63,847 nucleotides of DNA, filler included, from Reclinomonas americana ATCC 50394 (GCA_048213135.1; 8 parts of 5 records of this genome joined end to end with filler, not necessarily neighbours in it); one strand, 5' to 3'. Positions 3,574 to 57,303 are shown, counted from the first letter of the whole stretch. Numbers and translations are program-made. Notes: generated from the sequence alone by a model not told the origin.

Positions 3574-6139
3574 ATTTGACATGTCGCTGGCCGACGACAA
3601 GAAGCGACGTCGGCCGCCCGAGTACGATCGCCGTCCACTCCGAGCAGTTGTGGCGGTGGCGGTGTCGGCGCCGGTGCTGGCGGCGCCATTCGCGTTGTCC
3701 TCGGTTTCCACGGGATATGACAACTCGCGGTGTCTGTCGCGCTGACGATGAGAAACGAAACGCGATAAATGTACACACACGAACATAAAAGACGCAACAC
3801 TGGCGAGAACTGCGAGTCCGTATCGTCGTCGTCCGTGGTCTCGTCGCCGAGCTCTGACAAGTCGTGCACCGACGGGAACTGGCCCCACGAGCTATGAATC
3901 TTCATGCGACGGCGGGCGTCGGGCGACATACATTGCAGCGCCCTGCGCAGACAGTCGTGCAGTGTCCGCTCGATCGCAAATTGTGTTTCCAGATACGAAA
4001 ACTCTGCTCCCGCACCACTCAGCAAGCCACGAAAAGATCAAAAGGGGACACGCTTGAAAGTGAGAACGCAACTTGGCCAGGTGTTGCGCTGGCCCACCAT
4101 GATGTTGCGTCGAATGTCCTCGACAGTGGGGTTGGAGAGGATGTTCAAGTAGTCGCGCAGCATCATCTTGGGCACAATCGTGCAGTCGCCCTCGTACTTT
4201 TGCGTGATGAGCGGCTGCAGCCATGAAAACACCGACGGCATGAGGTTGTACTCGAACAGCTGCGCAGTACAAAGTCAGTGCCCGCAGAATACACACTCGC
4301 GGATGTGTGCATGCAGTGCGAAGAACCTGCAACAGTCGATGTCTGATCTCGCTGAGCGCCCAGTGTTGCACGCGACCCAAGAACGTGCGTCGTTTTGGCG
4401 TGTGCATGGCCGACGACGACAGGAACGGAATCACGTGCGGGTTGACTTGCGAGACGACAAAATGCTACACACGGTCATTGTCAGCAGCTAGTGTAGTGTG
4501 CTTGTGTGCTTGCGCACGCCTTACGCAACGTTGACATTGAACAGCTCACTGAGACGGGCCATGGGCAGGTCGGCCTCCACGGAACCGTCGGCCCAGTGCA
4601 CCTCTGCGATGCGCAGTGAGTCGCGAAATAATAAGAGCTGTGTGCGCGCGAACCAAAACAAACAAACCAAGAGAGTGGTGCGGCACGATTTGGCCCTCCT
4701 CGTCCTTGGCGTACAGTGACACGGGTGCAAACACGCCCGGAATGGCGCAGCTGGCCGAGGCGGCACTCCATACCAACACATTGGGTGCGGTGAGATAATT
4801 CAGCAAGCACGGCATTGAGTGCTTCGAGGTCGGCGACACGGTGATGTTGAGCACACGCCCTGAACGCTCGTACGCCTCACGGAAGGTGTAGTCGCCCACA
4901 TTGGCACGAATGCACTCGGTGAGTTTGTTGACGTCCATGAGCACACCCTGCGACGACGGTCAGGAGAGGGAACGCCTTGAGAAGATGGGAAAGGTAAACA
5001 CCTGCGAAAGCAAGCGGTGAAGACGCCGGCGAAACGAGCCGGGCTCCAGTCGGCGGAACACGTCCAGCTTCAGCTTGTCGGGCACAAACAAGTCGCCGAT
5101 CTCACGATCGGATTTCGTGCAAAACAGCGACGCCACAATGGCACCAGCACTCGAGCCACTCCACACTCGCGGCAGCAGTGCGGCCTCGTACAACGCCTTG
5201 ACCACTCCCTGCACAACACATCAGACGCCCTTCTGTGTTCCGCACACACTGGCCACACGCGTACCAAATGATACATGCCAAACGACGATCCACCCGACAA
5301 CAACAACGCCGTGCACCCGTACGCATGCGCTGTCTCCCGGAAGAAGGCGATCTTCTGGTGGTGCGTGAACGTCGACCCGAAATCGCTGACCAGGATCATC
5401 TCCAACGCCGAGCACACCTGCCACCACACGTGTCACACACTCTCAATCGTCGCCGCCGGAGTTGACCTGTTTGAACAGACCTCGCGAACATACTGCTCAA
5501 TGAGCTGCTTGGAGCCCACCAGTGCCTTCTCGTGCAACTCGGCACGCCCAATGCCCGCCAGTCCACGAATGAGGCCTGCGCACACCAGTCTGTCACGAGG
5601 AGCAAACAGAGAGAGAAGAGCACAGTCTGCTCACCTGCGCGAAGCTCCCACACCAGTGCCTTTACGTTGCGCATCTTGCGGAGGTGTTGTAATCGCTGGA
5701 GAGTGTGCTTGATCAGGTTGAAGTCGTACTTGTCGGAGTCGGCGCGCAGCTTCCAGTACGTGTGGCCTGATGAGCACTTCTGAGTGAGTTGCGTGGTGTG
5801 CTGTGCTCTGTGTGTGTGTGTGTGTGACTTGCCATTCGCGTCATCCAACTGCACAGCAATCGCCTTCCACTCTTCGTAGGTGGCGGCATCCTTCAGTTTG
5901 CTCTGCAACTCGGCGCGTGTGTCGCGAAACAGTCGCCATTCGCCATAGAAGAACTGAATGAGAGAGTGTGAGTGTGAGAGAGACGGTGTGTGTGTGTGTG
6001 TGTGACACAACGCAACAGCAAAGAAGCCAAAGACACTGCGAATGATGCGCATGAGCAAGGCGAGTAGGCCGTGCCATAGAACGACTGGAACATGAAGGAC
6101 GCGTGTGGCCACTGCGCGGGTGCTGCTTGCCACAGACAT
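3574..6139 (-). CDS. Patatin-domain triacylglycerol lipase, SDP1/TGL4-like (about 11 introns; 3' end in gap)
   Basis: ATYEEW..A..LD N-terminal domain, ALLLSGG oxyanion loop, GSSAG nucleophile, TFREAYERSGRVLNITV, LLNYLTAPNVLVWSA..ASCAIPG, WADGSVEADLP, ELFNVN|HFVVSQVNPH. Confidence 0.93.
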
Positions 6140-6176
6140 GGCCAGTCACCGCTCTCCTTAGAAGAAGCCGGAGTTG

Positions 6177-9100
6177 TTATGTGTTTATTACGTAGTTGTC
6201 TTCGTCTTCGTCGTCCTGCATCCATGTTCCAAGGACTTCGCGAAGCGGCCGCGGTGCACGACGACGCTTGGAGCGTGAACATGGTCGGAGCGACGGTATC
6301 GATGATGGTGCCTTTGGTGGAGCAGGCGGTGGCGGAGGAGGTGGTGGTGGAGGTGGAGGTGGAGGTGGAGGCGGAGGCGGAGGCGGAGGCGGAGGTGGCA
6401 GCGGAGGCAGTGAAACTNNNNNNNNNNNNNNNNNNNNNNNNNNNNNNNNNNNNNNNNNNNNNNNNNNNNNNNNNNNNNNNNNNNNNNNNNNNNNNNNNNN
6501 NNNNNNNNNNNNNNNNNNNNNNNNNNNNNNNNNNNNNNNNNNNNNNNNNNNNNNNNNNNNNNNNNNNNNNNNNNNNNNNNNNNNNNNNNNNNNNNNNNNN
6601 NNNNNNNNNNNNNNNNNNNNNNNNNNNNNNNNNNNNNNNNNNNNNNNNNNNNNNNNNNNNNNNNNNNNNNNNNNNNNNNNNNNNNNNNNNNNNNNNNNNN
6701 NNNNNNNNNNNNNNNNNNNNNNNNNNNNNNNNNNNNNNNNNNNNNNNNNNNNNNNNNNNNNNNNNNNNNNNNNNNNNNNNNNNNNNNNNNNNNNNNNNNN
6801 NNNNNNNNNNNNNNNNNNNNNNNNNNNNNNNNNNNNNNNNNNNNNNNNNNNNNNNNNNNNNNNNNNNNNNNNNNNNNNNNNNNNNNNNNNNNNNNNNNNN
6901 NNNNNNNNNNNNNNNNNNNNNNNNNNNNNNNNNNNNNNNNNNNNNNNNNNNNNNNNNNNNNNNNNNNNNNNNNNNNNNNNNNNNNNNNNNNNNNNNNNNN
7001 NNNNNNNNNNNNNNNNNNNNNNNNNNNNNNNNNNNNNNNNNNNNNNNNNNNNNNNNNNNNNNNNNNNNNNNNNNNNNNNNNNNNNNNNNNNNNNNNNNGG
7101 TGAACCGATGGAAGACTGGCTTTCGCCGACCAAGGCGCTCCCCGTCCCCCGCGTGCCCACACCACCACCACCACCGCCGCCACCACCACCACCGCCACCA
7201 CTGCAGCTGGTTGCTGTCGCGGAAGAGGAGGATGCCGACATGTCGTTCGACTTGTTTTCGTCGTCGAGTGGCCAGCACGAGGCTGTCGACTCGCGTTCGT
7301 CGTCCCCGTCCGAGGCATGCATGGTGGTGCCCGACTCGCAGGCGGAAGACGACGCTCTGCCACCAAGATTACTGTCGCCATCGCCATCATCGCTGTCGGC
7401 GCTCTCGACACCGCCNNNNNNNNNNNNNNNNNNNNGGCGGAGTGCAGCACAAGAACAGGAGCGCCGACCGTTTCCAGAAGCGACGTAGAAGCAGCTTCTT
7501 CGACGACAGCGGTGCTCTCCTGTTTGTGCGCAAGAGCAAACGAACGCAGTCGACCTGCACAGACACACTTCCGTGAGCACCGCAAACAAGACTACGGGAG
7601 CAAAGAAAAATATGTGTTGACGCACTGCCGAATGGCGCCACCGGCAGCTTCTCTGTTGACTCGCCGGCTGCACTGGCACGAAACACCAGCGGATCGTACT
7701 CCACGACATCGCTGCTCGAACTCTCTGAGCCCTCGCTGTCCACTAGAGGCGCTGCCGCGCTATCGGCAATGTCCTTTCTCGGTCGCTTCCGCCGCCGACG
7801 CGCCGTGTCGGATGCAGTTCGTGGTCTCTTGCGCTGCGCTGGTAATTGTGCCGCGTCCGCATGCACAGCAGGTTCATCGTCCAGCACTTCCACAGATGGC
7901 GCTCTTTTGCTGGCAGCTCGCAGATGCTCGACATGTCGCAGACGCCGCATCTCGGAGCGAGCCAGTGGCAACAACACAATCGGCATAAAGTCTGCCCATC
8001 GACACACATTTTTTTCAGCAACAAACCAACTCTCTGTCCAAGCCGGAGATGCAAGGCACACTCAACTTGGTCGCAGCACAATCACACGCGATTTGCTTGT
8101 CACCGTCGTTGCAGGTGGCGACAGTGGCCGAGCTGCAACTGTGCCTGCCTTGGACGGGAAGAGTGGAGCACTCAGTAGGTCGGGTGACGGCATCGGCGTT
8201 GGCGACGCAGTACCGCTACTGCTGCTCACGACCGGTGGCGGAACGGAGGGACACTTGGAGCCGGAATCCGCCGTCGGTGTTCTGTTCTGCGTGGCAATGT
8301 CCAGCGAATCGAGCGGGTCGAACGTTGGCGTGGACAATGAGCAAAGCGCGCCCAGTGGGAGACGCCATTCCTGCTGCTGAGGTGGTGGTGGTTGTTGCGG
8401 TTGTGGTGGTGGTGGCGATGGTTGCGATTGTGCAACATCGTCCGGCTGCACGTCCTCGTCAGAACGAGCAGGCATAGAATGCACATGCACGTATGTAAAA
8501 CGCACCGCCACCAGCACACTGTCGTCGGAGTGGAGAGTGACCTCGGTGGGGGAGTGCGGCGCAGCGCTACCAAGCAAGCGCACTCGTGAGTGGCGACAAG
8601 TTACTGCATATAAACGGGAGTGTCGCCATGAAGAACTACGCAACGCAGTGAGGGGGGTAGATGCAGGCCACTGTGTAAATGTATGTGGTTGAGTGATGAT
8701 CCATGGAACACGTGAAGGAGGGGGCATCACGCAACCGACGAGTCAAAACGAAGGGTGTGCGGAATCGGTCGTAAGCCACGCACAGCTATCTCCACTGGCG
8801 GCGGCACCAATGGCGTGAGTGGTAGCTCTCGCTGCTGCTGTGCAGAAGCGGCCATTGCAGCAACGTCGGCCTGCCTCTGCGCACAAGCAATCGAATCGCT
8901 GCGCGCACACATACACACAGTGAGTCTGCACCCAAGAGAACTGCATGTGGGCGATTCACGCACCTGCTGGCAGAGGAGCCGGAGGCTGCGAGGGGACTTC
9001 GCAGTTCGCCACTCAGCTCGAGTTGACTGGACACCTTGGAGGAGGGTGATGATCCGGCCACAGAGATTACACGTATCTGTGTACCACTGCTGGGTGTCGA

Positions 9101-10780: not shown

Positions 10781-10852
10781 CGTGTGCTGCGTGGCGCGCA
10801 CGTGATTGCGGAAAACGCGGGAAACCCCCGATGGACGGAACCGGTCCTGGAT

Positions 10853-10874
10853 CGATACGATACGATACGATACG
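10853..10874. repeat. (CGATA)n pentanucleotide repeat in the divergent intergenic region
   Basis: cgatacgatacgatacgatacg. Confidence 0.8.
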
Positions 10875-11299: not shown

Positions 11300-13344
11300 A
11301 TGTCAGACATCACTTCGCCGACCTCACGCAGCAAGCTGTTGCACCCGGCAGTGACGCGAGTGGCCTCGGCGCACGTATCCTCCATGTCGGTGGCACTCCA
11401 CCCCGCTGTCCGCGTAGCCTCCTGCCCCAACGCTGCTGACGCCATGTCAGCCATGTCGTCGCTCTCTCTTTCAATGACCATCAAGAAGCCGGCGTCTGCC
11501 GCCGCTGCTGCCGCCGTCAAGGTAAATTATACTGTACACCCTGGTTTCTGCGCTGCATTGAATACATATGTACTGATACGCTCTTTGCAACACGCAGCAC
11601 GCGGTTGCATCTGCGACCGGGCGCTTCGCTGGTCACTTTGCCGGCGGTTCGTCAACACCGCCGACCACCACCATCGAGCCACCATCACCCGCACAGTCGA
11701 CACCAATGGCGGCACCGCAGGCGCGCAGCTCTGGCATCGCCTCCTTGTCGCCTGGCACCGACGCCACGTCAGTCACTGCTGGCCGAAGGGGCAGCAGCAG
11801 CGGTCGCTCAGCTGCAGCACAACTCGACCCGACACGATGGGGTGAGTATGTTCGTGTATGCACATGTCCTTGGCACTGATATCGATTACTGACACGGTAC
11901 GCAGAGGAGTGCATCGATGCTGCAGACCCCACCGCCATCTACACCAACATGAACCGTCTGGAGAGTGGGTGAGTGGAGAGGGACAGGCATGAATCACGAG
12001 CGGGCACTGTCACCAAAATCGCTCACCTGCCTCGCAGTGCATTCGGGACTGTGTACAGTGCCGTGGATCGGCGCGACCAGTCGCGAGTGGCCATCAAGGT
12101 GCTCGACATGACAACGCTGCGACAGTACATGAAGCACGTGTCCACCGAAGTGGTCATCATCCGGCAGCTGGCCCCACGGCACGAGAATCTCGTACACGGC
12201 AAGGCCGTGCATCGCCGACGCGGTCGTGATCGCTTCGGCAAGGCCACCGACGAGCTGTGGGTACGNNNNNNNNNNNNNNNNNNNNNNNNNNNNNNNNNNN
12301 NNNNNNNNNTTAATTAATTAANNNNNNNNNNNNNNNNNNNNNNNNNNNNNNNNNNNNNNNNNNNNCCGTGTCTCACCAAAGCTGTGTGGGTGCACCAGAT
12401 TGTGATGGAGTACTGTTCGAGTGGTTCACTGGCCGATGTGATTGACGAGCACGGCGGCCTGAAGGAGAGCCAGATTGCAGCAATTCTCAAACAAGTTGAG
12501 TATCGCATGAGCACCACCCTCTCCATCGCCAGCGACAGCCGTCACTCACATTGCGTACAGCTGCTGGAGGGATTGGTGTTCTTGCACCGGGCCGGCATCG
12601 CCCATCGCGACATCAAAAGTCCAAACGTGATGATCTCAGGCTCCACCCTGAAAATCGGTGAGTCGTGCTCCCTTCCCAATGACAGTGTCAAGTAACCGTA
12701 CCCACTCTTCCTAATCCTACAAAGGCGATTTTGGGTCGTGCGCCATCCTGACCGACGAGAACGACAAGCGCGTGTCGATGAACGGCACCGTCGGCAGCAT
12801 GGCACCCGAAGGTTGTTGCTCCCTCCTGCACCACTGAAAGCCGTCGCATACTCACCGTTTCATGCACTGCAACAGTGCTTCGTGGCGACGCCTACGACGT
12901 CAGCGTCGACATTTTCAGCTTGGGTGTGCTGGCCATTGAATGTGCTGACGGGTGAGAGAGAGCACACACACAAGCATACGTTCCCTCTTTCCTCATTCGT
13001 GTGGTGTTGCAGTGAGACGCCGTGCGCCAGCCTCAACACCAACGAGGTCGTGGACCTGTACTCGGCACAGACGGCCGAACCACCCACTCTCGCCAACCCG
13101 TCACGCTGGACCGACGAGTTTGTCGACTTTGTCGCGTGCTGCACACGCATCAACGCTGCCGAGCGCTGGTCGGCCATTGAGCTGACTCGGCATCCGTTCC
13201 TGACGCGTGTGCGCGGCAACGGCAGCGATTCTACCGGCGGTGAAAAGTTGCGTGGCCTCCACCACCACTCCACAAAACTCCTTCCTGACGCATGACACAC
13301 ACAGTCCGCACCTTGCAGTTCTTCCGGGAACCGAGGCTGTGTAG
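11300..13344 (+). CDS. STE20/PAK-like Ser/Thr protein kinase (about 9 introns)
   Basis: DPTAIY..LESGAFGTVY, VAIK, IVMEYCSSGSLAD, HRDIKSPN, KIG|DFG, GTVGSMAPE|V, DIFSLGVLAIECADG|ETP, EFVDFVACC....ERWSAIELTRHPFL. Confidence 0.92.
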
Positions 13345-13474
13345 TGCTGTGAAGCGACGCAGCCAGTTGTCGTTAGAGGACACCACAATGAAGAGAGGCA
13401 AGCTTGTCGTCCACTGGCAACTATTGGGGGGGAGTTTCTTCTTCGGTTTTACGTGCACCACAGCTGTGCGTGTG

Positions 13475-15633
13475 TCACGCCAGATAACAAGTCACAGCCT
13501 TCGCAAAACAGTCGGCACATATACGTCTTCTCAAGAACGGCATCATTGACTGATCGGCAGATGGTGGCACGTCAAACGCCGCCGCCGCCGCAAACTGCAC
13601 GCGGTCACGATCGCCGTCAGTACCGACGAGAGGCGGCAGCACATTCACGGGCACTCGCCCCCTCTCACACGTACCATGCACACAAACACGCCACAGTCGT
13701 ATCCATTGCGCTGCCGCGGAACGGCGGGCACATAGTCCGTCCAGTCGGACAGGTCGAGTGTGCCGCCCTTCTTGTCGGCATACTCGTCTGCCACGTACCG
13801 ACGCAGCATCTACACACAGACACGTCAGCATCAAAATCACCACGGAAGCTGCTGCCGTCGAACGCAGCACACGCAACTGCGAGGTGCTCGGCGCCCCTGG
13901 AACCGAGAGAGTCGTAGAACTCGAAGCGACGGTCACGCACGTTGATGCACGCAAAGACCCAGTGCGCCGGCAAGTGGATGGGTATCAGCAACTTGTCCAA
14001 TTGGAAAACGTCGATTTGCGAACGCATCGTCCACCGCCTCACACTCTGATAGTTGTACTCCGTCTGCTCTGTGGTGAGCTGCTGGAAGAAGAATGTGTTG
14101 TGGCTCCACAGTTTCGGGCCCTGCCAGTCGGCCTGTTTCGCTCGTGCCACCAGCAGGCCTTGACAGTAGAAATTGACCACCTCGTCGTTGAGCCAGTTGG
14201 TGCCGGAGAGCGTGTGCAAGTCGAGCCGCTTAAGGTCGATCTTGGAAAGGGGCTTGCCGTGCACCAGAACCTCATCCTCGTCACCACGCCCAAACGCCCG
14301 ATTCACCAGTTCTTCCTCCTCGCGCCTCAGGGGCGGATACTGCACCTTGCGCTACCGATACACACACACACACAGATCAAGTGAGTGAGTGTGCAGTCGA
14401 CACGCATGCACTCTGGCGGCGACACAAACACCGACCTGTACCGCATTCTGGCGGTGGAACTCGGTGGCCTCGGCCACAATTCGCGGCTGCACCAGCAACT
14501 CCTCCAGCACGTCTTCCGCCACACTCAGCATCCATTTGTTTTCCCGCAGCGCGCCGCGCGCCACATCAAATATCGTGTCCATCAATACGGCCTCCCACGT
14601 CTCCTGCGCCACCTGCTCTCGCGTCTGCTCCTCCAGCCGTGTCAAATGCCTCTCTGGAGCCGGTGCGCGGCTCGTCACTCGCAGTGGCGAAAACATGAAC
14701 GGCGACGATTCCCGAGTGGTCGACCTGCACACACACACACGAAGCCGACATCACGAGTGACCACCAACGCATCACCACCACACCGACCACCATGCATGTG
14801 CCCTGCCACGCAACAGTCGGCGCAGCCGATAATCAATCACCAGCATCCCATGAAGTACATCAGACTCAGGATCCCAGAGCACCGCATCGTCGACTGCTGC
14901 TGCTTCTGCTTCTGCTTCTGCTTCTGCTGCTGCTGCAGATGGAGGTGACGCAGGCGGCCTGAGCCACTGGTGCTGCTGGCTAGCGGCCGGTGGTTGCCGT
15001 AATCCCTGATCCAGCGCGTCGAGGTCCATGGATTCTTGCCGCACTCGATGTCGATCCAGCACCGTCGAGCTTAGCCGCAATGGTGGACTGTAGAATGGGC
15101 TTCGCTGCGGCCGTCTGAAATACGACAACATACCAGCGTGGTCTGTGAAGGAGGTGGAGGTGGCCGTCCGCGGCGGCGACTCGGGTACATCATGAAATGC
15201 ACGCGGGCTGCGGAATGCATCTGCCGTCCGCGGCGACAACCCCGCATCATGAGTTTCACGCTCATCGGTGTCCACGTGCCGATCCTCCTCTCTCCCCTCA
15301 TCCACCATCATCCGGGTCGACTCGGCATTCTTCTGCACACACACGCACGCAAACGCGCGCGCGCGCGACATGTCAGCCGCGCAACTGCAGACCAAGGAGA
15401 CACGATGGTGGGCGACTCACTGTCGACAGTCGCGACGGGTATGTGCGTGGTGGTTCACTGCGCGGCTGCCGCCACGTCGACCAGTTTGGGGACGCAAAAG
15501 TGTGTGTTGCAGCGGGTGTGTACGTGCTGAACGCGTTGCGCGCCATGGGTGGAGTAGACGGTGAGCCGCCACCGTTAGAATGGCGGCCGCCAACGATGGG
15601 TCGTGGCTTTCGCGCAAAGGATGTGAACGACAT
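13475..15633 (-). CDS. ULP1: Ulp1/SENP-family SUMO protease (peptidase C48)
   Basis: WLNDEVVNFY, NTFFF, YQSVRRWT, IPIHLPAHW, FYDSL and QRNGYDCGVF give an intact His-Asp-Cys triad plus the oxyanion Gln; disordered N-terminus. Confidence 0.93.
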
Positions 15634-15684: not shown

Positions 15685-18600
15685 TCAGCGCCGTGAGGTT
15701 GGGGGACCGGAAGGTGCTCCACGCGGCCGCGATGTTACAGCATTCAACTGCACTTCCAGCTTGGCGGCGGCCAACGACACCAATTCCTTGCGGAACTCGT
15801 TAAGCAGCACGACGTTGCGAACAAACTTCTCCTCCTCGCCACTCAGCGGCAGATTGGCGAGATCTTGTGCGGACGTGTCGCTGGCGCGCAGGTGGTAGCT
15901 CGACCTGTGCGTGATTGATTTATCAGTGGGGCGTGAGATCACCGAGTGTGGGGAAGAGTGGGCGACGCAACATCGGAATCTGCAAGCTGCACTGGACCTT
16001 GGCCACCTTCCACTCGAATGATTCGATATCACGCGACGCCACACGCGCCGTTTCACACACCGTGTACAGCGAGCGTGACAGCGATGGATACTGGGCGGGC
16101 AGATGGATGGAGGGGTCCAGCAGGTACGTGTTGAGCACGGGGTGCGCCGACGACACGCACAGCGAGCACACCACCGAGGTGAGCGCCAAGTTCAACTCCC
16201 AGTCGTTGTGCAGGAAGGACTCCACACGGCGGAACAACTTTTGCAACAACATGCCCTCGTAGAACGGGGTCACCGACGAGGAGCCACCGGCACCCTCTGG
16301 CGCTCTCGAGACCACCAACTCCTCGGCCTCGCCAGCCACTGATCCACCAGCACGCGGTGACTCTGTCACGTGCAGAGTCAATCGCATGCACAGAGACGGT
16401 GACAATACAACGCGGGGACGGCGACAGAACTGACAGGTGAGCCAAAGAGGTCGTCTAACCGCGGCTCAACAGCCGCGGAACGCACGCGCACAGTCTTGCG
16501 AGCGTTGTCAATGTACATGGACTGAGAGACGCCACCGGCAAAGAACAGCCTGGTGGTGTGTGCAAGAAGAAGGGGGTGAATGGAAGAGGGGAAGCGTGAT
16601 GGCACGCCAAAAACACGCGAGAGAGACAAGTGGCGCGCACCAGGAAAAGTTGGGTCTCTTCATGGCGGGACTGGCGGCCAGGTCTGCGTGCATCATTGCC
16701 GCCTCTCTCCGTCCGAGACCCATGGTCTGTCCCGCCAGTCGGCCTGCGTCGCTCTCCTCAAATGGTCTCATCCAGTCGGCCTCACCAGTGGCCTCTGTCA
16801 GCGGTGCAAACATGGACGCCAGCGCCTGCAGCGACCTCAACGCCTTGTCTCGCATCTCGTCAATGTGATCCGCCGTCGACAACTGAATGCCTTGCCACTG
16901 TTTCGAATCAATGTCAGGACGCCCATACACGCTGTATCTGCTCTCTCTCTCTCACGCGCGCACACACACCTCCAGCAGCGCCTGCTCCTCCATCTGCTCA
17001 ATGACTTCCGCAATCGGACCGAGATTGCGCAGAATGAGCGTCTCCAGTAATGGAGCATAGTTGCGCGACAACAGCGCCTTGACCACCAACAGCGACAGCA
17101 CGGCAATCTGGTGGAACAGCAACATGAAAAATTGAGTGGAAAGCGCACGGCGAGTAGCGGCTTGAGAGGTGCGACGCACCGTGTCATCCAGGTCGGTGAT
17201 TCGTGACAGCAGCTGATTTCTCGCCGCCGGCACCGACGGCACTCCACGCACCTCCGGGCCCGTGGATTCCTGCGTCTATGCGTGAGCACTTCAACAACAA
17301 CAACAACAACAACAACAACAACGGGATGCACACTGATATTGTGCACGCAACTCCAAACAGTGAAAACACCAATCCCTCCAGCAGTGGCTTGCTGGAGATC
17401 TCCTCCACCACACGCTTCAGGTGATACAGCGACGCCTGTACTTCCGACTCTTGACTGCGTGCACACTTCAATGAGATGCACCGCGGAGTGAAATAACCAA
17501 CTCTCTCACACACAGACGCGCACGCAACTCGGCCGCCAACGAGGGGATCAACAACGGGTCGACAAACAGTTCGCGCCATCGCTTGCTGATTTCCTCCAGC
17601 AGAGCGACGTGCGGGGTCATGGAGATGCCGTTGAGGAAGCCAACTCGGTTCAAAAACTCGCTCAGTGGGTCGTATCGACCCTCTTCGCCACTTCGACTCG
17701 CTGTGTTGTGCCAGCAAAAGTGAGGCAACACGCGCGAATTCCCGCGCTGGCTATCACGCTGGCTGTCACGCAACGCGATGTTCTCCGAATGTCCACTTGC
17801 CGGTTCGGCGAGAACTCGGAAGGTAGCGCACGGAATCCATTCACCAGGCCGTGTATCTACACGGAGATTACACAGTGAGACAGCAACGTCACTGAAAAGA
17901 TGAGCGACCGACCGGCAACGGAACAATGAGGTCCAGCAGCTGCGTCCGTCGGGCGATAAATACGCCGAGTCCCAGCGACGGGAGATCAATGAGCATCGTC
18001 AGTGCCGCACGTGCCAGGTCACCGTCGGACTTGGAGTCGTTGACGAATCGCAGTAGCGACGTGAACACGAGGAACTCACCCTGCCCGCTCTGCACGCACA
18101 AAAGGGATCAGCTTGTCTATCGCGGCGGTAGTCGTCGCGGAATACGCACCCCATCGCTGCGCTGCTGGAAGAATAGACCCAGCAAGCTTGGATTCGCGGA
18201 CAGCTTGATGGCCAGATTGTGCAACAGGTGCACATATGCTTTCCGCGCTGTGTACACATTCAAGTTGAGCGACACCTGAATCATCGCTGCACGACCGGGG
18301 CGGATAACTCTTCTCGTCCAGATCGCGCAGGTTACACGATCGCAGCACCGTGTCGAGCGCATTGTGAATCGGCATGATCTGCACCAAATCAAAGCGCAGT
18401 TGTCGCAGCAGCGTTCCCAAATGCTCCAACACCAACGCCAGCGTTCCACACGGCGACTGCGCAATACCGACCCCATCAGCCACCGAAGACCGCACACATT
18501 TCCCGCACAGACACACGCAACATCGGCCTTGCCAAACTCGCACAGCGTCTCAAAGATCTGCTCGTCCTTGAAATACTGCAACAGCGGTCGCACCTCGCCC

Positions 18601-19006
18601 TCATCACTCAGCACAGTTCGTTGATCCTGCAGTCACTGTGAGCCATGGGAGGCAGGCACTGTCTTTCTTCAGCACGCACCTCTGTGATGAGCAGCTCCAT
18701 CATCTTGCCGAGCTTCCCGCCAATGTCTTGGTTGATCAAGATCGACGAATCGGTGCCCTCATCTGCCGCGCGCGCGCCACATGTCAATTTCGTTTTTTCA
18801 TCTTTCTCGCTCTTCACACGCATGCCGCAACTCCTTGCCACGGCATTCAAATGGCGCAAATCCGAGTTGAAGAACTCACTCAGGTCCTCCCACGTGCGCC
18901 GCATGACGTCCATGTCCGTCGGCGCGAACACGTCCGCCACAGCCTCCACGCCTTTGCTCACGGCACGCATGCCCTTGCTCCACATGCTCTTCAACCATTT
19001 CGACAT
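15685..19006 (-). CDS. FHIP/FAM160 (FTS-Hook interacting protein) family, about 14 introns
   Basis: LLQYFKDEQIFETLCEFGKAD|SPCG, FLVFTSLLRFV, LFRRVESFLHNDWELNLALTSV.CSL....HPVL..YLL, NVVLLNEFRKEL. Confidence 0.8.
17292..17322. repeat. (CAA)n intronic microsatellite
   Basis: About 10 CAA units inside a FHIP intron. Confidence 0.9.
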
Positions 19007-39363: not shown

Positions 39364-39460
39364 CACGATGCAGGTTACCGAGAGGCCTCTGGTTACCGCC
39401 TGGGAAATTGCATCGTAGAACGGCCTTTTGTGTGTGTGTGTGTGTGTGCAAAGAAAGAAG

Positions 39461-42400: not shown

Positions 42401-43119
42401 CTGTGCGATCTGTACGAGAACGACTTCATCTTTGACAAGTTTGAGTGTGTTTTCAGCGGCGATTCCAAGTTGCGTCGTCACCAAGAGACAGAGTGACAGA
42501 CAGAGAGAGAGAAAGAGAGACAGTGTGAAAAGAAACAGTACGTGAGAGAGAGGAGAGAGGAATGATCGTTAAGAAGAGGGCAAAGAGAGTTGAGAGGTTG
42601 GATGTGCTTGATTTCTGTCTCTCCCTCTCCCTCTCCCCCCTCTATCTCCCACACACGAAGCTCACGTTGTCTTGCATTGCACCGCAGGTTCATGATGACC
42701 GGCTCGTATCACAACATGTTTTACGTGTACGATTGGGAGGGACGAACGCACTCCACCATTGAGGCTTCCAAGGCGGCGCCAAAGCGACGCCAGAGCGTCA
42801 AGGGCAAGGGTAAGTGATCGTGTGTGTGTGTGTGTGTCTATCCTCTCCCCGACCTGCCAGCATTGCTGACCTTCCTGCAGCAGCGAAGAGCCCAGTGGCG
42901 AAGCGCCCACCGGCGTACGAAAATATGGACCTCAACAAGAAGGTGCTGCGCATGAACTGGCACCCAACCGACTACCTCGTGGCCGTGGCGTCGCTCAACA
43001 ATCTGTACATTTACGACGCCTCTGGCCCCAATCCGCCATCTCTCACCATCAACGCGCAAGCCAATGCCGCTGCAGCGTCGGCTGCATCGCCAGCCGGTGG
43101 CGCCTCGGGCTCCACGTAG
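39461..43119 (+). CDS. PPP2R2: Protein phosphatase 2A regulatory subunit B55 (WD40; PPP2R2/CDC55 family)
   Basis: [106 protein letters not shown]...WHP. Confidence 0.96.
40769..41142 (-). other. Two internal exons of the PP2A B55 gene on a mis-oriented contig
   Basis: Minus-strand DKTIKLWKV...|[36 protein letters not shown] is exactly the segment missing between LLTTN and IVDLKP on the + strand; bounded by N gaps on both sides. Confidence 0.9.
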
Positions 43120-43464
43120 AAAACCCAACACCATTACAAGGGAAGGACACGGATCGTGCACCAGCTGCCGCCATCACGACCGCCGCCCAACACAAGACAA
43201 ATCGTAGCACCATGCGCTGCTACACCTGGCAACACGAGTGGCTGAAGCGGATTGGACAGTGGATTTCCGATGTGGTTTATTCTTTCACCATGATCGCTGA
43301 GTCTGCTACTTCTTCCCTCCCCGTCTTCATCCTCGTTTGTTGTCTGTGTGTACAGTTGTGCTTGTGTTTTTTTGGGTGGTGTGCTATTTGTTCCTCACCG
43401 CCGCTTTCCGCCTTTTTCCGTTCCTCTCCGTCTTCATGTCTACGTTCTGCTTGTCGTTATCGGT

Positions 43465-43466
<2 letters not shown>

Positions 43467-43501
<35 letters not shown>
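43467..43501. repeat. (GT)n microsatellite (many shorter (GT)n/(GA)n tracts occur in introns throughout)
   Basis: About 17 TG units between the convergent PP2A and LRR genes. Confidence 0.9.
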
Positions 43502-43502
<1 letters not shown>

Positions 43503-43549
43503 TGTGTGGTAAAGAAAGTGTATGCTGATTATCGGTTTACGGGACAGTG

Positions 43550-45834: not shown

Positions 45835-47699
45835 ATGGACTGGCGCGCACATACTCCGGTCAATGGTGAGGACGATGAGTGGTTGAGTGGCGGCAGCAGC
45901 GGCAGCAGCGGCGACGTGGACATGCTGTCGTCGTCGTCGGCAGACACCTCGTCGGCCTCCTCGCCCATGATGCCAGTGCATGCGACAAACTACTCTGCAG
46001 CAGCAGCAGCAGCTGTGGCGACGCAGCAACAGCAGCAGCAGACGCGCAGTCGACCGTTACATTGCGCGTTGCGTGTGTGTAATCGCAGTTGCGTGTGCTT
46101 GTGTGCCATCGCTGCGCCGTGTGTGTGTGTGTGGCGACTGACGTTGAGTACACAAGATGCCAACTTGCGCTTCTTCCTGCACGTGCTCGGCATGCAAGTG
46201 CTGCGGCATGAGGAGTTCGACGAACGCATTGTGCGTGATCGGCGTGCGGCCCCAGTTGCGTTTGCTCCTTCCCGCCTTGTCTCTTGTTGCTGCGTGTCGC
46301 TGACGTCGTTGCGTTGTCGTCTGCTGTAGGGATGGAGCGGCAAGTGGTCTCGTACCATGATTGGCTTTGGGCCGGAAGGTGTGTGTGTGTGTGTCTCACA
46401 CTCGCGCACATGATTTTCCGAGAGAGAAATCGGGCGCACTCACTCGGGCCACCCAGAGACGCACTTTGCGGTGGAGTTGACGCACTTTTACGGGGCCACG
46501 GTGAATCAGGCCTCGCGGGGACTGATGGAGGCGCAGACGCCACCTGCGAGTGCCGCGAGTGGCCGAGCTGCGGACATGACGAGAGGATCCGAGGGCTCCT
46601 CGAGTGTGGCCACGGCCGGCAACGATGCCGCCACGCTCGTGATATGCTCGGATGTGGTGTACAGAAGAGTGCTGGAGTCGCAATGGCCGCGCGATGTTGT
46701 CGGTGAGAGGAGTGAGCACCGACCAAATGGGGGAGAGTGAGACGCGATTCTCATTTGTACTTGTTGCTGGCCGCAGTGGCACCGGCGTGGATGCACACGT
46801 TTGTGTACGGTATCAACCGCATGTGCGTGTCGCTGCAGTCGCCCGACGGGTACACGGTGATTGTGGGCCCCACCGAGTTGCACCCGGATCCAGTTGAGTG
46901 GCACATGCAATGTTGTTCGCGTTTTCGCTCACTCCTCATTCCTCACTTCTACCCTTGCTCTCGACAGCAACGCTCAGTGGATCCCGTCGCAGCCATCTGC
47001 TACAACGTGTCGCACATGGAGGACTCGCTTTGTTGCGTCGTGAACTCTGCCGCCTGCCCTCGACATGTTGACTGACGAGCATGCAGCATTCTATGTCGTC
47101 GGCCTGGGCATGACGGTGGAGCAGCGAGCGCAAGGCGACGAGTATTGTGTGCTGTACTTTTCGCGATGCAGCTGCCGGTTGGTGCTGGTGCCGACGCCGC
47201 ACCAGTCACGCATCGTGCATGGCGATTTGAGCGGACGACTGGTGCTCGGTGTCACGAACATTCACGCCGCCGTGGACCACCTGCGTCGCGTGCATGCCAC
47301 CTTGCTGTCTCCAGTTGTGCAGCTGTCGTCGTCGTCCAGCCGTTGCGTCTGCATGCGCACGTCCTTCACGCCACCAAGCCGTCATCTGACCTTTTTTTCT
47401 CCTCCACAGAGATGGTCGATGTGGCGTTGCTGGCAGACGCCGACGAGTACATTGTGGCACTCGCGCAAACACCCGAGTTCTTCGCAGTGGCCAAGTACGA
47501 CACGACAGCGGCGTACGAGGTGGCGCGCCTGCTGGGCCAAGATGGGACTTCGGAACTGCCGCAGCTGTCGCCACTGTCGAGCATGCACGGTGTGCAATTG
47601 CGCGCGGGCGGAGAAAATGAGGACGCCAGTGGCCGCGCAGCCGACTGGGCCATGACATCCAGCGTGCTGTGGGATGACTTGGTGGAGGAGGCGTTTTAG
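45835..47699 (+). CDS. GLOD4: Glyoxalase-domain protein, GLOD4-like (7 introns)
   Basis: RPLHCALRVCNR|NANLRFFLHVLGMQVLRHEEF, GKWSRTMIGFGPE, THFAVELT, LQSPDGY, DPV, VALLADADEY. Confidence 0.8.
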
Positions 47700-48003
47700 A
47701 AAAAGAGAGAAATAACAACTACGTGCAGAAAACAACAACCAAGAAAAACGATAATACAATTATAACTGTGTTTGCATTAACATTCCCATTCTCCATACAC
47801 ACGCACACACCATTCTACAAAAAGGCACAAGCGGTATAGCACACTTAAAATCACACACACAATAAACAAGCAGCCAACAAAACAACATATAACAAAACAA
47901 AAANNNNNNNNNNNNNNNNNNNNNNNNNNNNNNNNNNNNNNNNNNNNTTAATTAATTAANNNNNNNNNNNNNNNNNNNNNNNNNNNNNNNNNNNNNNNNN
48001 NNN

Positions 48004-51000
48004 GCGCCTGATACTGCTTCTGCAGCTCCTTAGACACGTACTGCGCAACGGCAACACAGTGAGAATCACACACTTTTCATCCCTCTCGCCCTGTCTTGCA
48101 CTCACCTGCCAGCACTCGTCAATCACCGACTCCTTGGCCACAATGTTGACCACACCGGCGGCGTTCTCCGACGACATGTTGAACTTGGAAAAGTAATGCT
48201 CCACCTCCTCCTTGCGTCGAACGTACGTCACCCACAACAGGAGCAGACAGGCCGAGGCGCGCACAGTCTCTGCGCGCAGTTTGACCTCGTGCTCGCCCGG
48301 CGACAGCACACTGACCAGCAGGTCGTAGCATTGCTGCCACTGTAGACAATCGAATGAGAACACTGAACCATACAAACGGTGCGCGATTCTGGCCCTACAA
48401 AACCTCTTCCGGTCGAATGTCGTCACTCCCCTCCTCTGTCGTGCCGTCCACACCACGTCGCAGCCGCATGGCCAGCGCGAAAGCAATGCGTCTCTTGATG
48501 AGGATCCACGGCATGCGCTGCGATTCGCGCTGCTCCATCGCCTCGAACAGGTTCTTCAGCACCACCAGACAGGCCGAGTACTGTTTCTCGCGGAACAGCA
48601 TGTCGGCCACCGGAATGGCAAACCACGGCAGCAGCTGGCGATAGCGACTCAGGGTCTCCAGTTGCTGTCGCAGCATCTGCATCAGTTCTGGCATATCTGT
48701 GACGATCTCCAAGTTGGCATCGTTGAGGATGCGCTCCGGGTGCTTCACAATGCGCTCGCCTGTACCACTCGAGACGTGAGAAATGGTTGCTCTCCCCTCA
48801 CACACATTAGAAAACGCGCTCTCACCCATGCGCAGCACGTGATAGTCGCTGAGACGGAGGAAGAACTGGCCGATGCGCGAACACATTGGACTCTCCGTCT
48901 CCTCGCCAAACTGGTACGCCTGCACCACCAACGAATTGAGAAGGAGAGAGACAGAGAGCGAGAGAGAAATGAGTGGCTGAGAGCCCGACGGTGTACCTCA
49001 ATGGCGCGCTCGGCCACCAGCTGATACTCGTTGATCACCCACAACGGGAATAGTACGCGACTGAGGAAGTACGCGCGAGTGGAGTTGTGCTCCTTGATGC
49101 CCACCAACTTGCAGCTGTGTAACAATCTCAGCAAGACTCGAGCACAGGTGAGCATGAATCACCGCGGGTGGATGGTACACACCACTCATCGTAGCAGCGC
49201 CAGGCGCTCCAGCGCTCGCCAAACAGAGCATAGTTGGTCATGGCCTCCACAAAGCCACTGACCACGGGGTCCACCACACGCGGGTACGACTGCAGGATGT
49301 TGCTGAAGCGCGGTCGATCGCTATCAAACACCTGCTCCATCGAGCGGAAGTGTTTGAGGGCCGTGCGCAGGTCACCAACTGTGCACACGTGCGAATGAGA
49401 AGACTGGGGAGGAAACGCAGGTTGACGACACACACACACAAAAAACGCAACGCTCAGAGTAGTGCATGACACCGGTGCGGTGGCCGTCGATGAGACGACG
49501 CGCGTCGACCGGACAGTCGAGGCTCCAGATGTGTCCCTTCTTTCCCGGATCGAGGAAATCGCCCATGTACTCAACAATGCGCGTCCACACGTCGCACATT
49601 TGCCGCAAATGGCCGTCGCGATCCAAGTTCAAGTACACAAACCACAAGTTCGACAGCACGTCGTAGTGCGCCTCACGTGGGAAGAATGTCGCCTGCCACC
49701 CACGAAAGGTAAGCAACTCCGCGCGCGCACACACACACGCCTCTCATGCCCGCCCGCCACGCAACATTCTCCAGCAAGCGGACTGCGTGGTGCAACACCG
49801 ACTCGGTCTGCTCGTTGATGATGTTGCAGGCCAGCAGCGAGGTACTGAGCTGGCACACCAGGTTGAACTCAAACATTTGCATGTCACGATCTGGGCAGGA
49901 GGAGTCGAATGAGAAGGCATCGGCGGGCGGGGGACACCACGAAAACATGCGCGCGTACCTTTGAAGCGACACTCGGCCAGCAGCTTCACAGCATTTTCCA
50001 GCGTGGAAATGGCCGCCCGCTCCATACTCGAATCCACCATGCGCTGCGCGTGATCCTCCATGTAGCCGACGGCCTCGCGCACACTCGAACTCAGCTGTTT
50101 GTCTGCTCACAGTGTGTGCGTGTGTGAGACGTAAGTGGTCGGTTGCGAATGATATACGCTCGATGAACGCAACTGTCGGCACGGTCGTCCGGAGCCACAT
50201 GCATCAACGCATCCATGGTGGCGTGGAAGGCATGATGGGCAAGCTGATTGACAATGCCCGCCGACACCGAGTCGGTGTCCTCGCTGAGTTCCTTTTCCTT
50301 CAGCGGATCGTAGTCCGGCTGCGTGCATGCAGGTGTGTCAGTGAAGCGCAGCGAGGGCATGACGCGCAGCAGAATGACAGCGAGAGCGCACCGGCAGCAG
50401 GCGCTTGAACCAGTCGTAGATGAACTTGTGCGCCTTGCCACGTCGCGAAGGCATCATCTGATGGTACAGTGCGTACGCCGTCGTGTTGTGGTGGAACTCG
50501 TACATTTGCTACTCGAGGAGAGTGTGTGTTAGCGCACGACTGACGAAGCGAAGACACCGCACACACCAAACAAACCTCCTTGAACGGATACACAGTTCCG
50601 GTGTTCTCGACGCCCGACGGATCGCGTTGCACCAGAATCTTCTCATCGACCAGGTGCTGCAACATATTGTAGATCTCCTCCTCGGAGAAGTCCTCAGTGT
50701 CCACATGTGTCAGATTGAACACTTGCAACNNNNNNNNNNNNNNNNNNNNNNNNNNNNNNNNNNNNNNNNNNNNNNNNNNNNNNNNNNNNNNNNNNNNNNN
50801 NNNNNNNNNNNNNNNNNNNNNNNNNNNNNNNNNNNNNNNNNNNNNNNNNNNNNNNNNNNNNNNNNNNNNNNNNNNNNNNNNNNNNNNNNNNNNNNNNNNN
50901 NNNNNNNNNNNNNNNNNNNNNNNNNNNNNNNNNNNNNNNNNNNNNNNNNNNNNNNNNNNNNNNNNNNNNNNNNNNNNNNNNNNNNNNNNNNNNNNNNNNN

Positions 51001-54000: not shown

Positions 54001-57000
54001 CCGAGGTGTTGCCGCCGCCGCTGCTGCTGCTGCTGCCGCCGGATCCACTCGCCGCACTAGCACTGCCACTGCCGCTGCCACTGCCACCGCTGCTGCTGTT
54101 GCTGCTGCCGCCGCTGCTGCTGGATCCCGCTCCGCCCCCACTGCCGCTGCTTCCGGCAACACGCCCACCACCGTGCCGCGCCGACAAGCGGGCAAGGAAG
54201 TGTCGAATGAGCGTGCTCGAACCGCGGCCGGGCGGAGCGTACAGGACCACCACTCGGCCGCAATCCGGCGTCGCCTCCAATCTGCAACACAACAACAACA
54301 ACAACGACACGCATGCAAATGAGCGTCTCTCACCACCATCACTGCACGAGTTAGTACGCAACGCGTCGTGCGGCTGGGTGAATGTGTAGCCGGCGGCCGT
54401 GTTGGAGGCATTGACAGTGGAACCGCCAGAGGTGCCACCGAGACTCTCCACCAGCGCCACCACCTCGTCGTGTGCGTTCATCAACATGCCAATCTGCTCC
54501 TCACCACCAACTGCACACCGAGAAGCATTCAGCAAGAGAAGAACGTGGACAGAAGAAGGTCAATACACGTCTCCTAGTACTCACTGAACACTTTGGAGAG
54601 ATGAATCGGCTTCTCCTCCTCTTCCTGCTCGGCGCCCGATCGAGTGGCCGACGCTGTATTGCTGGTCGATGCCTGGCGCATCACTTTTAGCTGGTATGCG
54701 CCGACCGGCTCAGTCTTGCCTGCACACAGGACAGCGTCAGATGGGCGCTCCCAAAGCTCTCATTGACTCACTCACGCACACACACACACACACACACAAA
54801 CCCTTCAGTGTCAGCGACAGTGGTGGTTCGTGCAGCGCAGTCGAGTTCTTGGCCAGCACTGCTGCACCGCCGATACTGCGACACACGGCTTCGTGGCACA
54901 ACACGGGCAGCAGTCGCCAAGTTTCGCCTGTGGAGTGCACTGAGTGAGCGCACCAGAAATGACAGAAAGGCAGCTGGCGGCGACGCTTATCGCAACTGCG
55001 GTGAGTCTTGGCTCGCAGATGGTAGTGCACGTGACCCATGAGGCGAGCAGCAGTGTTGACGACATCGCCGAGAAGAGTGAAATCGAGGCGCTGCGTGGAA
55101 CCCACAGGGCCCGTGTACGCTTGACCGGCTCTGCACAGTCATACACAGTTCAGCACACGCACGGTGGGGAACATGCAGAGAAGAGAGACAAACGCACGTG
55201 ACACCGACGGCACACTTGAAACCAATGTCTTCGAGAGTGCGCGCAATCTGGGCACTCGCCAGCACGCCTCGCTGACGATGCTCCTCCAACGACGCCACAG
55301 TGAGACCGAAAACCACCAGCGCGCCCACACCCTTCTCGTCAGCAAAGAGGTTGCACATGCTGCCGTCAAACGAGGCGGCAATCTCTTGCGTACGGTACAC
55401 GCCCTTGTGGAAATCGCTGTGTGTGCACACACATTCAGAAAAAATGCACTGAAGTGCAAGCACCAGTGCAGCGGTCTCACCTGTCACTGCCGCGCAGCTT
55501 TTGGATCGAGTCGTCGGGATTGTTGGTGAAAGACACGAAAATCACCGTCACGTTGCGCAGTTGCGGAGTGATGGAGCCCTTCAACACCAGCGCCTGCAGC
55601 AGTCGCGGTTCAATCATGGAGCGCAGCATCTGCACCGTGGCAGGCACAGTCGGGTTCGGCAACACGTTCTTCAGGTTCAGTAGCAGCTCTGCAGGACAGA
55701 CGGCGATGAGGAGACACAGTGTCAGAGGAGACAGAACAGCGAGCAAACTTACCTGGGTTGGGCTGTCGACGAGCCGTATCAAACATGATCTTCCACACGA
55801 GTTTGCTGGCCGGTTGGTCCTTGTCGTTCAGCGGCCCCTCAATGCCCTGAATGCGCGTGTTGGGAATGGATGGATCCTGCACACACGAGGGCAGGTGTGA
55901 GACAACTATTCGCTCGCGACTGAATGTCATCATGTACGTGATACCACCGTCGCACCTGCAGCGTCAGCTCCAAGTACGTCTTACTCTCATTGTCCACAGT
56001 GACATCGCCACTATGCGAGTACTCGACCGCACTGTGCAGCGCACGGAACGCAGTGCCCGCACAGATAAACTTGTACGTATCGTCGTAGCCGCCAACCAAA
56101 GAGCACGTCAAGTCGCCCGTCGACATGCCTGTCAACCACTGTCAGTGGGCAAAAATAAAACACACAAAAGCGCTCGATTCTAGTAAACGCAACCAATGTG
56201 CAGCTCCAGTTTGATGCGCCGATAAATGTACACGCCGGCTTCCTGCTGCAACTCCACGGCGCATGTGGCCGCACGTGTGATAACCTCACGCATCACCTCG
56301 GTGCGCGTGAGGGCACGAGGCGAATCCACATTCTCCGACAGCAGCGAGTTCGTGGAGCCACTCGAGGTGAGCATTTGAGTGGCAGCACTGCTGCTGCGCG
56401 ACAATGGCAGCGTGGAGAAACTGCTGTCGGCCACATCGATCGGACCCGGCACGCGCTCGGCCATGCGTTGCCGGAAAGTGGAGACAATCGGCGTATCGTC
56501 CTCCTCCTCCTCGCTGGTCATTGACTCCGAATCCAGCGTGCTCGGCGAGTATGACGACCGGGGCGACGTGGGCTCTGAAGCGTGGGGCGTAATAGACGGT
56601 GAAGCACCGGGGCTAATGTGCTTGCGCTGCCAGAACCCAGACAGCGGCCGCTGTGCTGCTGCTGCTGCTGCCGCCGCACCTGCTGCGGTGGTACTGGCTG
56701 TCGAGCGTGCTGAGAATGACGAGTCGGGTGCCAGATCCATTGAGCTGCCGAACGATGACGCAGAGCCAGAGCGGTGGTGGCGAGTGCCGCCGGCGGCACC
56801 CGCCGTGGCCGGACTGCTGGGACGTTGCGAGGACGATGCTCCCTGCGCATCCCACAGTGTACGGCCGGCTTTGGCCTGATACAGCGCTCGTCGACGCGCT
56901 TCGCGCTGCGCCGCCACACTGCCGTCATCGTCCGAGGTCGCCGTGCTGAGATCGACGGGGAAGAAGGCGACCAGCGCATCACCGACAAAGTACAAAATGT

Positions 57001-57303
57001 CGCCTCCGTGCCTCGACACAATCCCAATCAGATGCGTAAAGTAGTCGTTGATGACTTGCACAAGCGAGTCGACACCGGCAGGGCCACGGGCGCACAGCGT
57101 CTCGGCGAGGTTTGTGAATCCTGGCCAGCGCAGTGAATGTGTGAGGAGACGCTGAGAAGAAACAACCGACGGAACGCAAACGCAACCACTAATGTCGATC
57201 AGCATGAGACTGCCACGCATGCTCTCCTTGCAGCCAGGCGCCAGATCCTTCTTGGCTTTCACCAGCGAGTCCACCAGGTGGAAAATGCATCGCGGGATGT
57301 ACT
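48004..57303 (-). CDS. Soluble adenylyl cyclase-like (ADCY10/SgcA architecture): cyclase C1 + C2, STAND-type NTPase and helical/TPR-like C-terminus; many introns, several gaps
   Basis: C1: LIDISG|FT.LAE...VINDYF....GGDILYFVGDAL, LELHIG; C2: QLRNVTVIFV, DEKG...VVFG, GVT.G.AYTGPVGS..R.DFTLLGDVVNTAARLM; NTPase: VVVLYAPPGRGSSTL, PFSSW, VLVFENSHMMDAAS. Confidence 0.88.

Follow-up and report, generated by a model that had tools for sequence, protein, structure and literature searches.

We describe a second class of 5′ splice sites in a stretch of Reclinomonas americana ATCC 50394 DNA of 63,847 bases (~59% G+C; the window below), which is dense with intron-rich eukaryotic genes. Judging from the sequence and its homologues, GTTGCGT (rarely GTTGAGT or GTTGCGN) is very probably a genuine 5′ splice site that serves ordinary U2-type GT-AG introns in large numbers; it opens roughly 20–30% of introns, and no other single donor heptamer is as common here. 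An initial annotation had listed 33 such sites and proposed GTTGCGT/GTTGAGT as a mainstream donor class, a proposal that is borne out by ten junctions fixed by protein homology, by the enrichment of the motif, and by a gene finder that is blind to donor sequence. GTTG[CA]G stands at every one of the 33 coordinates, on the strand given for it (26 GTTGCGT, four GTTGAGT, and one each of GTTGCGC, GTTGCGG and GTTGCGA). We note, however, that the two heptamers are not equal partners: GTTGCGT is dominant and GTTGAGT is a minor member, such that the class is almost monomorphic, and the T at +7 is itself part of the signal (91% of the class, compared to 53% T at canonical +6).

The ten junctions fixed by homologue alignment (intron +1 positions 4072, 4529, 12495, 17351, 17528, 18521, 34377, 35007, 41852 and 42469; Table 1) lie in genes for a patatin lipase, GFAT, the PP2A-B55 subunit, a kinase and an FHIP protein, and at each of them excision of the GT...AG stretch restores both the reading frame and the conserved protein. 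Among the collections searched, the top homologues are 64% identical for GFAT and 76% identical for the lipase, which suggests that the proteome of the organism itself is not among these collections. Conserved protein motifs had been cited earlier as fixing many of the junctions, and ELFNVN/HFVVSQ, EIHA/EGF and GDSK/FMMTG (junctions at the slash) are indeed aligned; DISG/FT at 57186, which we take to be a cyclase-domain motif, is not homology-verified, as the alignment starts 15 residues downstream, and the exon before this junction gave no match in a PDB alignment. Support at 57186, 32877, 15971 and 18831 is weaker than at the ten fixed junctions. Single exons were mostly too short for Pfam scans to place junctions, and a homologue search with one B55 exon returned no match.

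Donor usage was also predicted by a dynamic programming gene finder, which takes codon bias, GT..AG, intron length, acceptor and branch motif as its inputs and, in its donor-blind form, sees nothing of the donor beyond the GT. In this form, the finder starts 23 of its 173 predicted introns with GTTGCG, more than with any other donor hexamer (GTGCGT, 13; GTGAGT, 9; GTGCGC, 9), and it recovers 18 of the 33 proposed donors; with self-trained donor weights, 23 of the 33 are recovered, as are all 22 homology-fixed junctions. Donor-blind runs on a single strand, covering regions won by the opposite strand, add 40271, 46893, 47032 and 47342, together with a new site at 46255. A strict site test, which asks for an acceptor, a branch motif and a coding frame on either side, was passed by 15 of 59 GTTG[CA]GT sites, compared to 13 of 173 GTG[CA]GT sites and 289 of 7847 other GT sites. 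No run recovers 6016, 18831, 20453, 21089, 46088 or 39463 as donors. A compatible acceptor and frame are present at the first five of these; 39463 lacks a frame-compatible acceptor within 200 nt and is unsupported.

GTTGCGT occurs 50 times on the two strands of the window, compared to 15.88 ± 3.97 expected from dinucleotide-preserving shuffles, and 0 of 100 shuffles reached 50 copies. The inserted base is specifically T, with 50 copies of GTTGCGT against none of GTAGCGT, 12 of GTCGCGT and 26 of GTGGCGT. Proposed donors account for 26 of the 50 copies and other predicted donors for a further eight, leaving 16, which is the chance expectation. Where protein homology alone gives the orientation of the genes (30.8 kb), GTTG[CA]GT is found 26 times in sense and 7 times in antisense; GTTGCGT alone gives 25 sense and 5 antisense copies, GTTGAGT has three sense copies, and the hexamer without the +7 T has no strand asymmetry. 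A motif arising by chance or coding bias is rejected by this enrichment and by the 26:7 sense bias. The density of GTTGCGT is 84.9 per 100 kb in the window, compared to 6.9 in 348 kb of metagenome eukaryote loci encoding lipase homologues, although this control is crude, being drawn from organisms that are not close relatives (80 loci with lipase homologues, at most 65% identical), and these 80 loci provided no orthologous introns from a near relative.

The share of the class among all donors was counted in three gene segments, which were picked for their conservation and not randomly. The donors of the GFAT gene are, in order, GTTGCGT, GTGCGC, GTGCGC, GTTTGT, GTGAGT, GTTGCGT, GTGGGT, GTGCGC and GTTGCGC (three of nine in the class, or two of eight without the unverifiable first); those of the patatin lipase are GCAAGT (GC-AG), GTGAGC, GTCTGT, GTACGC, GTGTTT, GTTTGT, GTTGCGT, GTTCTT and GTTGCGT (two of nine); and those of the B55 segment are GTTGCGT, GTGGGG and GTTGCGT (two of three). 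The resulting share of 6/20, or 7/21 when 32877 is counted (~30%), matches the rough tally of 21 of 69 introns (~30%) made earlier. The gene finder gives 24/173 when donor-blind and 33/175 GTTG[CA]G with self-trained weights, percentages that are lower bounds because the finder is noisy and false introns dilute them; two of its odd donors were corrected by homology, the true donors being GTGAGT at 34142 and 38691. The earlier description of ordinary donors as carrying G at +5 is too strict, since GTGTTT, GTTCTT and the donor of one GC-AG intron are also homology-verified. Canonical donors vary in sequence (GTGCGT, GTGCGC, GTGAGT, GTGAGC, GTTTGT, GTACGC and others), and the donor signal is loose apart from two sharp modes. 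The homology-verified donors with odd cores are GTTCTT (4260–4326, - strand), GTGTTT (4948–5001, - strand) and GTGGGG (42268–42331, + strand). The GC-AG intron of the lipase (66 nt, donor GCAAGT, 5767–5832, - strand) corresponds, if left unspliced, to 22 residues that 10 of 10 homologues are without.

In the remainder of their anatomy, the introns of the class are ordinary short GT-AG introns. Their lengths span 58–116 nt in the set compared, against 53–100 nt for introns with canonical donors; the branch motif CT[CGA]A[CT] lies mostly 12–26 nt before the AG in both donor classes, and CAG acceptors are found in both. The canonical class here has GTGCGT/GTGCGC donors, a CTGAC/CTCAC branch motif and short introns. 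Two class introns of the B55 gene (41852–42145 and 42469–42687) are unusually long, at 294 and 219 nt compared to a median near 70.

It is very improbable that the motif is no splice signal at all, and that junctions were simply misplaced in a repeat, an introner-type mobile family, coding bias or U12-type introns. The noise of the gene finder, with its two wrong donors, and the 16 of 50 copies without an intron assignment would fit such an explanation, but these copies are no more than chance provides, the sense-strand bias is strong, protein alignments fix ten junctions exactly, and the intron at 4529 leaves no room for its boundaries to slide. Membership in a family of introner-type mobile introns is rejected, as the intron bodies are no more alike within the class (mean local alignment score 7.87) than between classes (7.85; 7.88 within the canonical class). 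Like the present class, U12-type introns have a sharply defined donor of their own, distinct from that of the major introns. However, the U12-type donor and branch-site consensus is unrelated: nothing in GTTGCGT is U12-like, and the class shares its branch motif, branch distance and acceptor with the major introns here, such that this identity is likewise rejected.

The exon side of these junctions bears on how the sites may be recognized. G at -1 is found in 4/33 class donors compared to 27/34 canonical GT[GA][CA]G donors (Fisher 2e-8), and in a second gene set the canonical count is 36/49 against the same 4/33, whereas A at -1 is found in 16/33 and 5/34, respectively (p = 0.004). Among the ten verified donors, A stands at -1 in seven and G in none. 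The initial annotation had left the choice between a shifted and a bulged U1 register undecided. The data favour a shift over a bulged U, because a bulge keeps the -1 slot, and would be expected to keep its G, while G at -1 is depleted in the class. We put the chance that the class is read in the +1 shifted U1 register at about even. In this register, which would be the first to read the site, each base pair is displaced by one position; as a string, xA/GUUGCGU matches a canonical xAG/GUGCGU but for one G-to-U change. U1 would dock on AGUUGCGU as it does on AGGUGCGU, with G+1 in the usual -1 G slot, U+2 as a mismatch, and UGCGU in slots +2 to +6. Cleavage would then take place at the one GU available, a base upstream of its normal position, and an extra U separating the scissile bond from the GCGU core would have to be tolerated in the later steps (U6, U5 and Prp8). 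The near-invariant +5 C (29/33, or 88%, compared to 21/34, or 62%, at canonical +4), +6 G and +7 U may be the price of the lost base pair.

A number of observations weigh against this reading. The A at class -1 is only modestly above that at canonical -2 (42–48% compared to 21–31%). When ViennaRNA duplexes are computed with a human-type U1 5′ end, which may not be that of the host, the helices that take in G+1 are shifted more often than bulged (10 and 5 of the 33 sites), but the best duplexes of the other 18 have G+1 in neither register (unpaired, or paired elsewhere), and the class averages only -2.0 kcal/mol, canonical donors -6.9 kcal/mol. The heptamer is also poorly explained as a compensation through stronger pairing to U1, because at +5 the C, which cannot pair with canonical U1, is preferred over the rarer A, which could. 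In addition, the canonical -1 statistics were drawn from gene-finder calls that include errors (among them the two corrected by homology), actual use of the sites rests on protein homology and gene finding, and the survey covers 59 kb with genes of the analyst's choice.

Two other modes of recognition have to be set beside the shifted register. In the bulged register, which we consider quite unlikely, G+1 and one U would pair with U1 normally, the other U (+2 or +3) would bulge, and GCGU would pair as +3 to +6, with the same bulge recurring opposite U6. The two U's permit this bulge +2/+3 register, G+1 and U+2 would stay in their normal U1 slots, and humans do have sites in this register (68 predicted and 54 curated; PMC4856993, Table 3). 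The five bulged helices from ViennaRNA all have G or C at -1. The -1 G of canonical donors should nevertheless persist under a bulge, and it does so at very few of the class donors and at 0/10 of the verified ones. Dedicated or altered machinery, which is rather unlikely in our view, would mean a second U1 variant, a changed U1 or U6 complementary to the heptamer (ACGCAAC), or a protein reader, and thus two parallel donor codes. Here, the near-monomorphic class (26/33 exactly GTTGCGT; 25 sense copies compared to three of GTTGAGT) beside degenerate canonical donors, the preference for C where canonical U1 cannot pair, and the very weak predicted pairing to a human-type U1 end would all be accommodated, and lineage-specific changes in U1 and U6 in tunicates offer a precedent (PMC13326754, as far as its accessible part goes). 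The one-mismatch relation to the canonical nine-mer is, however, explained more simply by a shift. To our knowledge, the U1 5′ end is also nearly invariant across eukaryotes, which we count against altered machinery. An Rfam scan of the window found no snRNA, with nothing at gathering scores and, at E ≤ 1, four weak matches unrelated to splicing. The particular form in which the major spliceosome holds two donor codes, with the whole of GUUGCGU read by a dedicated partner complementary to it (an additional U1 snRNA, or a U1 5′ end or U6 box that has been remodelled), is unlikely; it would explain the near-invariance of the heptamer, the C at a position that U1 cannot pair, and how the commonest donor could be one with weak predicted U1 binding.

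In 2009, Roca and Krainer reportedly described atypical 5′ splice sites in humans that U1 reads in a +1 shifted register, and human bulge-register sites are said to have been described by Roca et al. in 2012. In Tan et al. 2016 (PMC4856993), all validated noncanonical registers together account for 3119 of 201,541 human sites (1.5%), and bulge +2/+3 register sites for 54–68 of the 201,541; the "Shifted +1" model site in Table 2 of that paper, ACA/GUCAAGUAU, has A at -1, the GU, one extra base and then the core. The likeness to rare human noncanonical-register sites that the initial annotation had pointed out holds, in that the architecture is the same: GU, one extra base and the usual +3 to +6 core, with A and not G at -1 and cleavage at the GU. 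However, the +1 shifted sites of humans are few and weak, with two mismatches, whereas the present class has a single mismatch, an almost fixed heptamer and a large share of all introns, and use of the register is inferred here from sequence. The human bulge +2/+3 sites likewise have GUU followed by core pairing one position later, with a single extra U, but they are extremely rare (PMC4856993) where the present motif is the commonest donor, and the missing -1 G argues against them as a model. In tunicates, according to the accessible part of PMC13326754, non-canonical splicing is accompanied by changed U1/U6 modification and U2AF. As here, a non-standard splice-site rule has gone mainstream in a lineage, there with changed machinery; in tunicates, however, the GT/AG rule itself is abandoned, while the present introns keep GT-AG and differ only in the spacing that follows the GU.

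A full-text search of the literature for a GTTGCGT/GUUGCGU-type motif as a donor returned only primers, miRNAs and aptamers, although a donor logo shown only in a figure would escape such a search, and the papers found by a search on shifted register or bulged U1 pairing dealt with humans, tunicates or methods only. What is new here is that a known rare recognition mode, or a look-alike of it, serves as a mainstream donor. The distance from GU to core in a 5′ splice site is treated as fixed, and shifted and bulged registers are known only as rare human exceptions. If our reading is true, this organism would be a natural system for how U1, U6, U5 and Prp8 set the cleavage position, and would show whether the hand-off from U1 to U6 tolerates an extra nucleotide at scale, as well as whether snRNA variants evolve for a second donor class. 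Standard gene finders, trained to expect a six-base donor, would also get one in four of this organism's introns wrong.

Table 1. Introns and candidate introns of the GTTG[CA]G donor class in the window, with the evidence for each (a slash marks the junction; for the - strand, the donor lies at the higher coordinate)
Feature	Coordinates	Strand	Evidence
GTTGCGT intron, 69 nt, patatin/SDP1-like lipase	4004..4072	-	gapless against P0121 (76% identical) and 9 homologues; donor-blind finder
GTTGCGT intron, 65 nt, patatin lipase (ELFNVN/HFVVSQ)	4465..4529	-	homology-verified, 10 homologues; in-frame TAA right after donor; boundaries cannot slide
GTTGAGT intron, 66 nt, STE20-like protein kinase	12495..12560	+	unspliced, 22 extra residues in kinase core; halves overlap at residues 111-114 of MAP4K1 chain 7l26_A
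GTTGCGT intron, 82 nt, FHIP/RAI16-like gene	17270..17351	-	keeps conserved hydrophobic-Gly motif deleted by finder's alternative donor; found with self-trained weights
GTTGCGT intron, 74 nt, FHIP gene	17455..17528	-	contiguous with P0243, P0246, P0251, P0271; donor-blind finder
GTTGCGT intron, 65 nt, FHIP gene	18457..18521	-	gapless inside conserved FHIP block; donor-blind finder
GTTGCGT intron, 76 nt, glutamine-fructose-6-phosphate aminotransferase (GFAT)	34377..34452	+	just past SGETKD block; gapless against 12 GFAT homologues
GTTGCGC intron, 79 nt, GFAT (EIHA/EGF)	35007..35085	+	gapless against 12 GFAT homologues
GTTGCGT intron, 294 nt, PP2A regulatory subunit B55	41852..42145	+	upstream exon ends at 8uo5_B residue 267, downstream query residue 2 = 271; fit within one residue, variable loop
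GTTGCGT intron, 219 nt, B55 (GDSK/FMMTG)	42469..42687	+	exons = 3dw8_B residues 310-354 and 356 onward, split codon 355; exactly contiguous
GTTGCGT intron, 80 nt, GFAT N-terminal extension	32877..32956	+	donor-blind finder; links N-terminal motif (some homologues) to catalytic Cys exon; junction region variable
GTTGCGT intron, 68 nt, low-complexity gene after GFAT	36534..36601	+	donor-blind finder only
GTTGAGT intron, 75 nt	7992..8066	-	donor-blind finder only
GTTGCGT intron, 68 nt, Ulp1/SENP protease gene	13810..13877	-	donor-blind finder; upstream exon Peptidase_C48, E=7.6e-17
GTTGCGT intron, 67 nt, FHIP, after DUF5917 exon	15905..15971	-	donor-blind finder; frame continues to conserved C-terminal block; junction in variable linker
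GTTGCGT intron, 69 nt	29630..29698	-	donor-blind finder only
GTTGCGT intron, 73 nt, large cyclase gene, helical-repeat part	49693..49765	-	donor-blind finder
GTTGCGT intron, 71 nt, large cyclase gene, helical-repeat part	50103..50173	-	donor-blind finder
GTTGCGT intron, 73 nt, large cyclase gene, helical-repeat part	49379..49451	-	only with self-trained donor weights; local frame/coding check positive
GTTGCGA intron, 69 nt, cyclase gene	54928..54996	-	donor-blind finder
GTTGCGT intron, 65 nt, cyclase gene	56129..56193	-	donor-blind finder
GTTGCGT intron, 66 nt, class III cyclase domain (DISG/FT)	57121..57186	-	donor-blind finder; class III adenylate cyclase match (E=5e-6) in downstream exon, from residue 15
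GTTGAGT intron, 136 nt, N-terminal part of B55	40271..40406	+	single-strand donor-blind run; junction in variable insert
GTTGCGT intron, 75 nt, absent from the initial list	46255..46329	+	single-strand donor-blind run
GTTGAGT intron, 75 nt, gene 45969-47699	46893..46967	+	single-strand donor-blind run
GTTGCGT intron, 55 nt, gene 45969-47699	47032..47086	+	single-strand donor-blind run
GTTGCGT intron, 68 nt, gene 45969-47699	47342..47409	+	single-strand donor-blind run; strong coding score on both flanks
GTTGCGT intron, 65 nt, weak	8671..8735	-	only with donor weights
GTTGCGT candidate intron, 69 nt	46088..46156	+	frame-compatible, branch motif; finder preferred another donor
GTTGCGT candidate intron, 63 nt, lipase variable N-terminus	5954..6016	-	acceptor shared with finder's alternative donor 6036; homology cannot decide
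GTTGCGG candidate intron, 69 nt, FHIP	18763..18831	-	in frame, stop-free, finder read through; all homologues gapped there; no branch motif found
GTTGCGT candidate intron, 66 nt	20453..20518	+	frame-compatible; finder used GT 3 nt upstream
GTTGCGT candidate intron, 86 nt	21004..21089	-	frame-compatible; downstream open frame short
GTTGCGT copy, proposed donor, unsupported	39463..39469	+	no frame-compatible acceptor within 200 nt; context ATG/TTGCGT

The window consists of eight contigs, which are joined by N44-TTAATTAATTAA-N44 and contain internal N gaps besides. The seven linkers of 100 bases, each with a stop in all six frames, lie at 3474–3573, 12266–12365, 31515–31614, 40669–40768, 47904–48003, 52497–52596 and 60911–61010. 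Genes span at least two of them, the kinase gene that at 12266–12365 and the B55 gene that at 40669–40768, and because of this the contigs appear to be in order rather than random. The pieces of the B55 gene lie at 39364–40668 on the + strand, at 40769–41142 on the - strand (from the linker to an N gap), and at 41612–43528 on the + strand, such that the middle contig looks inverted in the assembly. A weak miRNA-family match on the opposite strand of the B55 intron 42469–42687 (E=0.042, far below the gathering score) is probably due to chance.

Pfam or homologues identify genes for a kelch protein, a patatin/SDP1-like lipase, a STE20-like kinase, a Ulp1 protease, an FHIP/RAI16-like protein, a Myb protein, GFAT, a D-glutamate cyclase homologue, the PP2A subunit B55, and a leucine-rich repeat (LRR) protein, as well as a very large class III cyclase gene. 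Several long open reading frames encode Pro/Ser/Ala-rich low-complexity proteins with weak codon bias, and (CA)n/(GT)n runs, often within introns, provide the most frequent heptamers of the window (~200 each). The cyclase gene, or run of genes, occupies 48004–59023 on the - strand and is interrupted by N gaps; its low-complexity N-terminus is long, as is its helical C-terminal part, and it also contains a class III adenylate/guanylate cyclase domain (E=5e-6 against photoactivated cyclases) and stretches that are acidic or rich in Gly and Ser.

The gene at 45969–47699 (+ strand) has eight predicted exons, and GTTG[CA]GT donors stand at four of its seven predicted introns, or at five if the proposed donor at 46088 replaces the first donor chosen by the finder. 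A PDB alignment of two of its exons gave no usable match; its N-terminal exons may resemble glyoxalase-domain proteins. Finally, the N-terminal extension of GFAT (32792–32956, + strand) carries an Arg-rich motif that, in the alignment, is common to the GFATs of dictyostelids, Pelomyxa and Acrasis, and may be a targeting or regulatory peptide.

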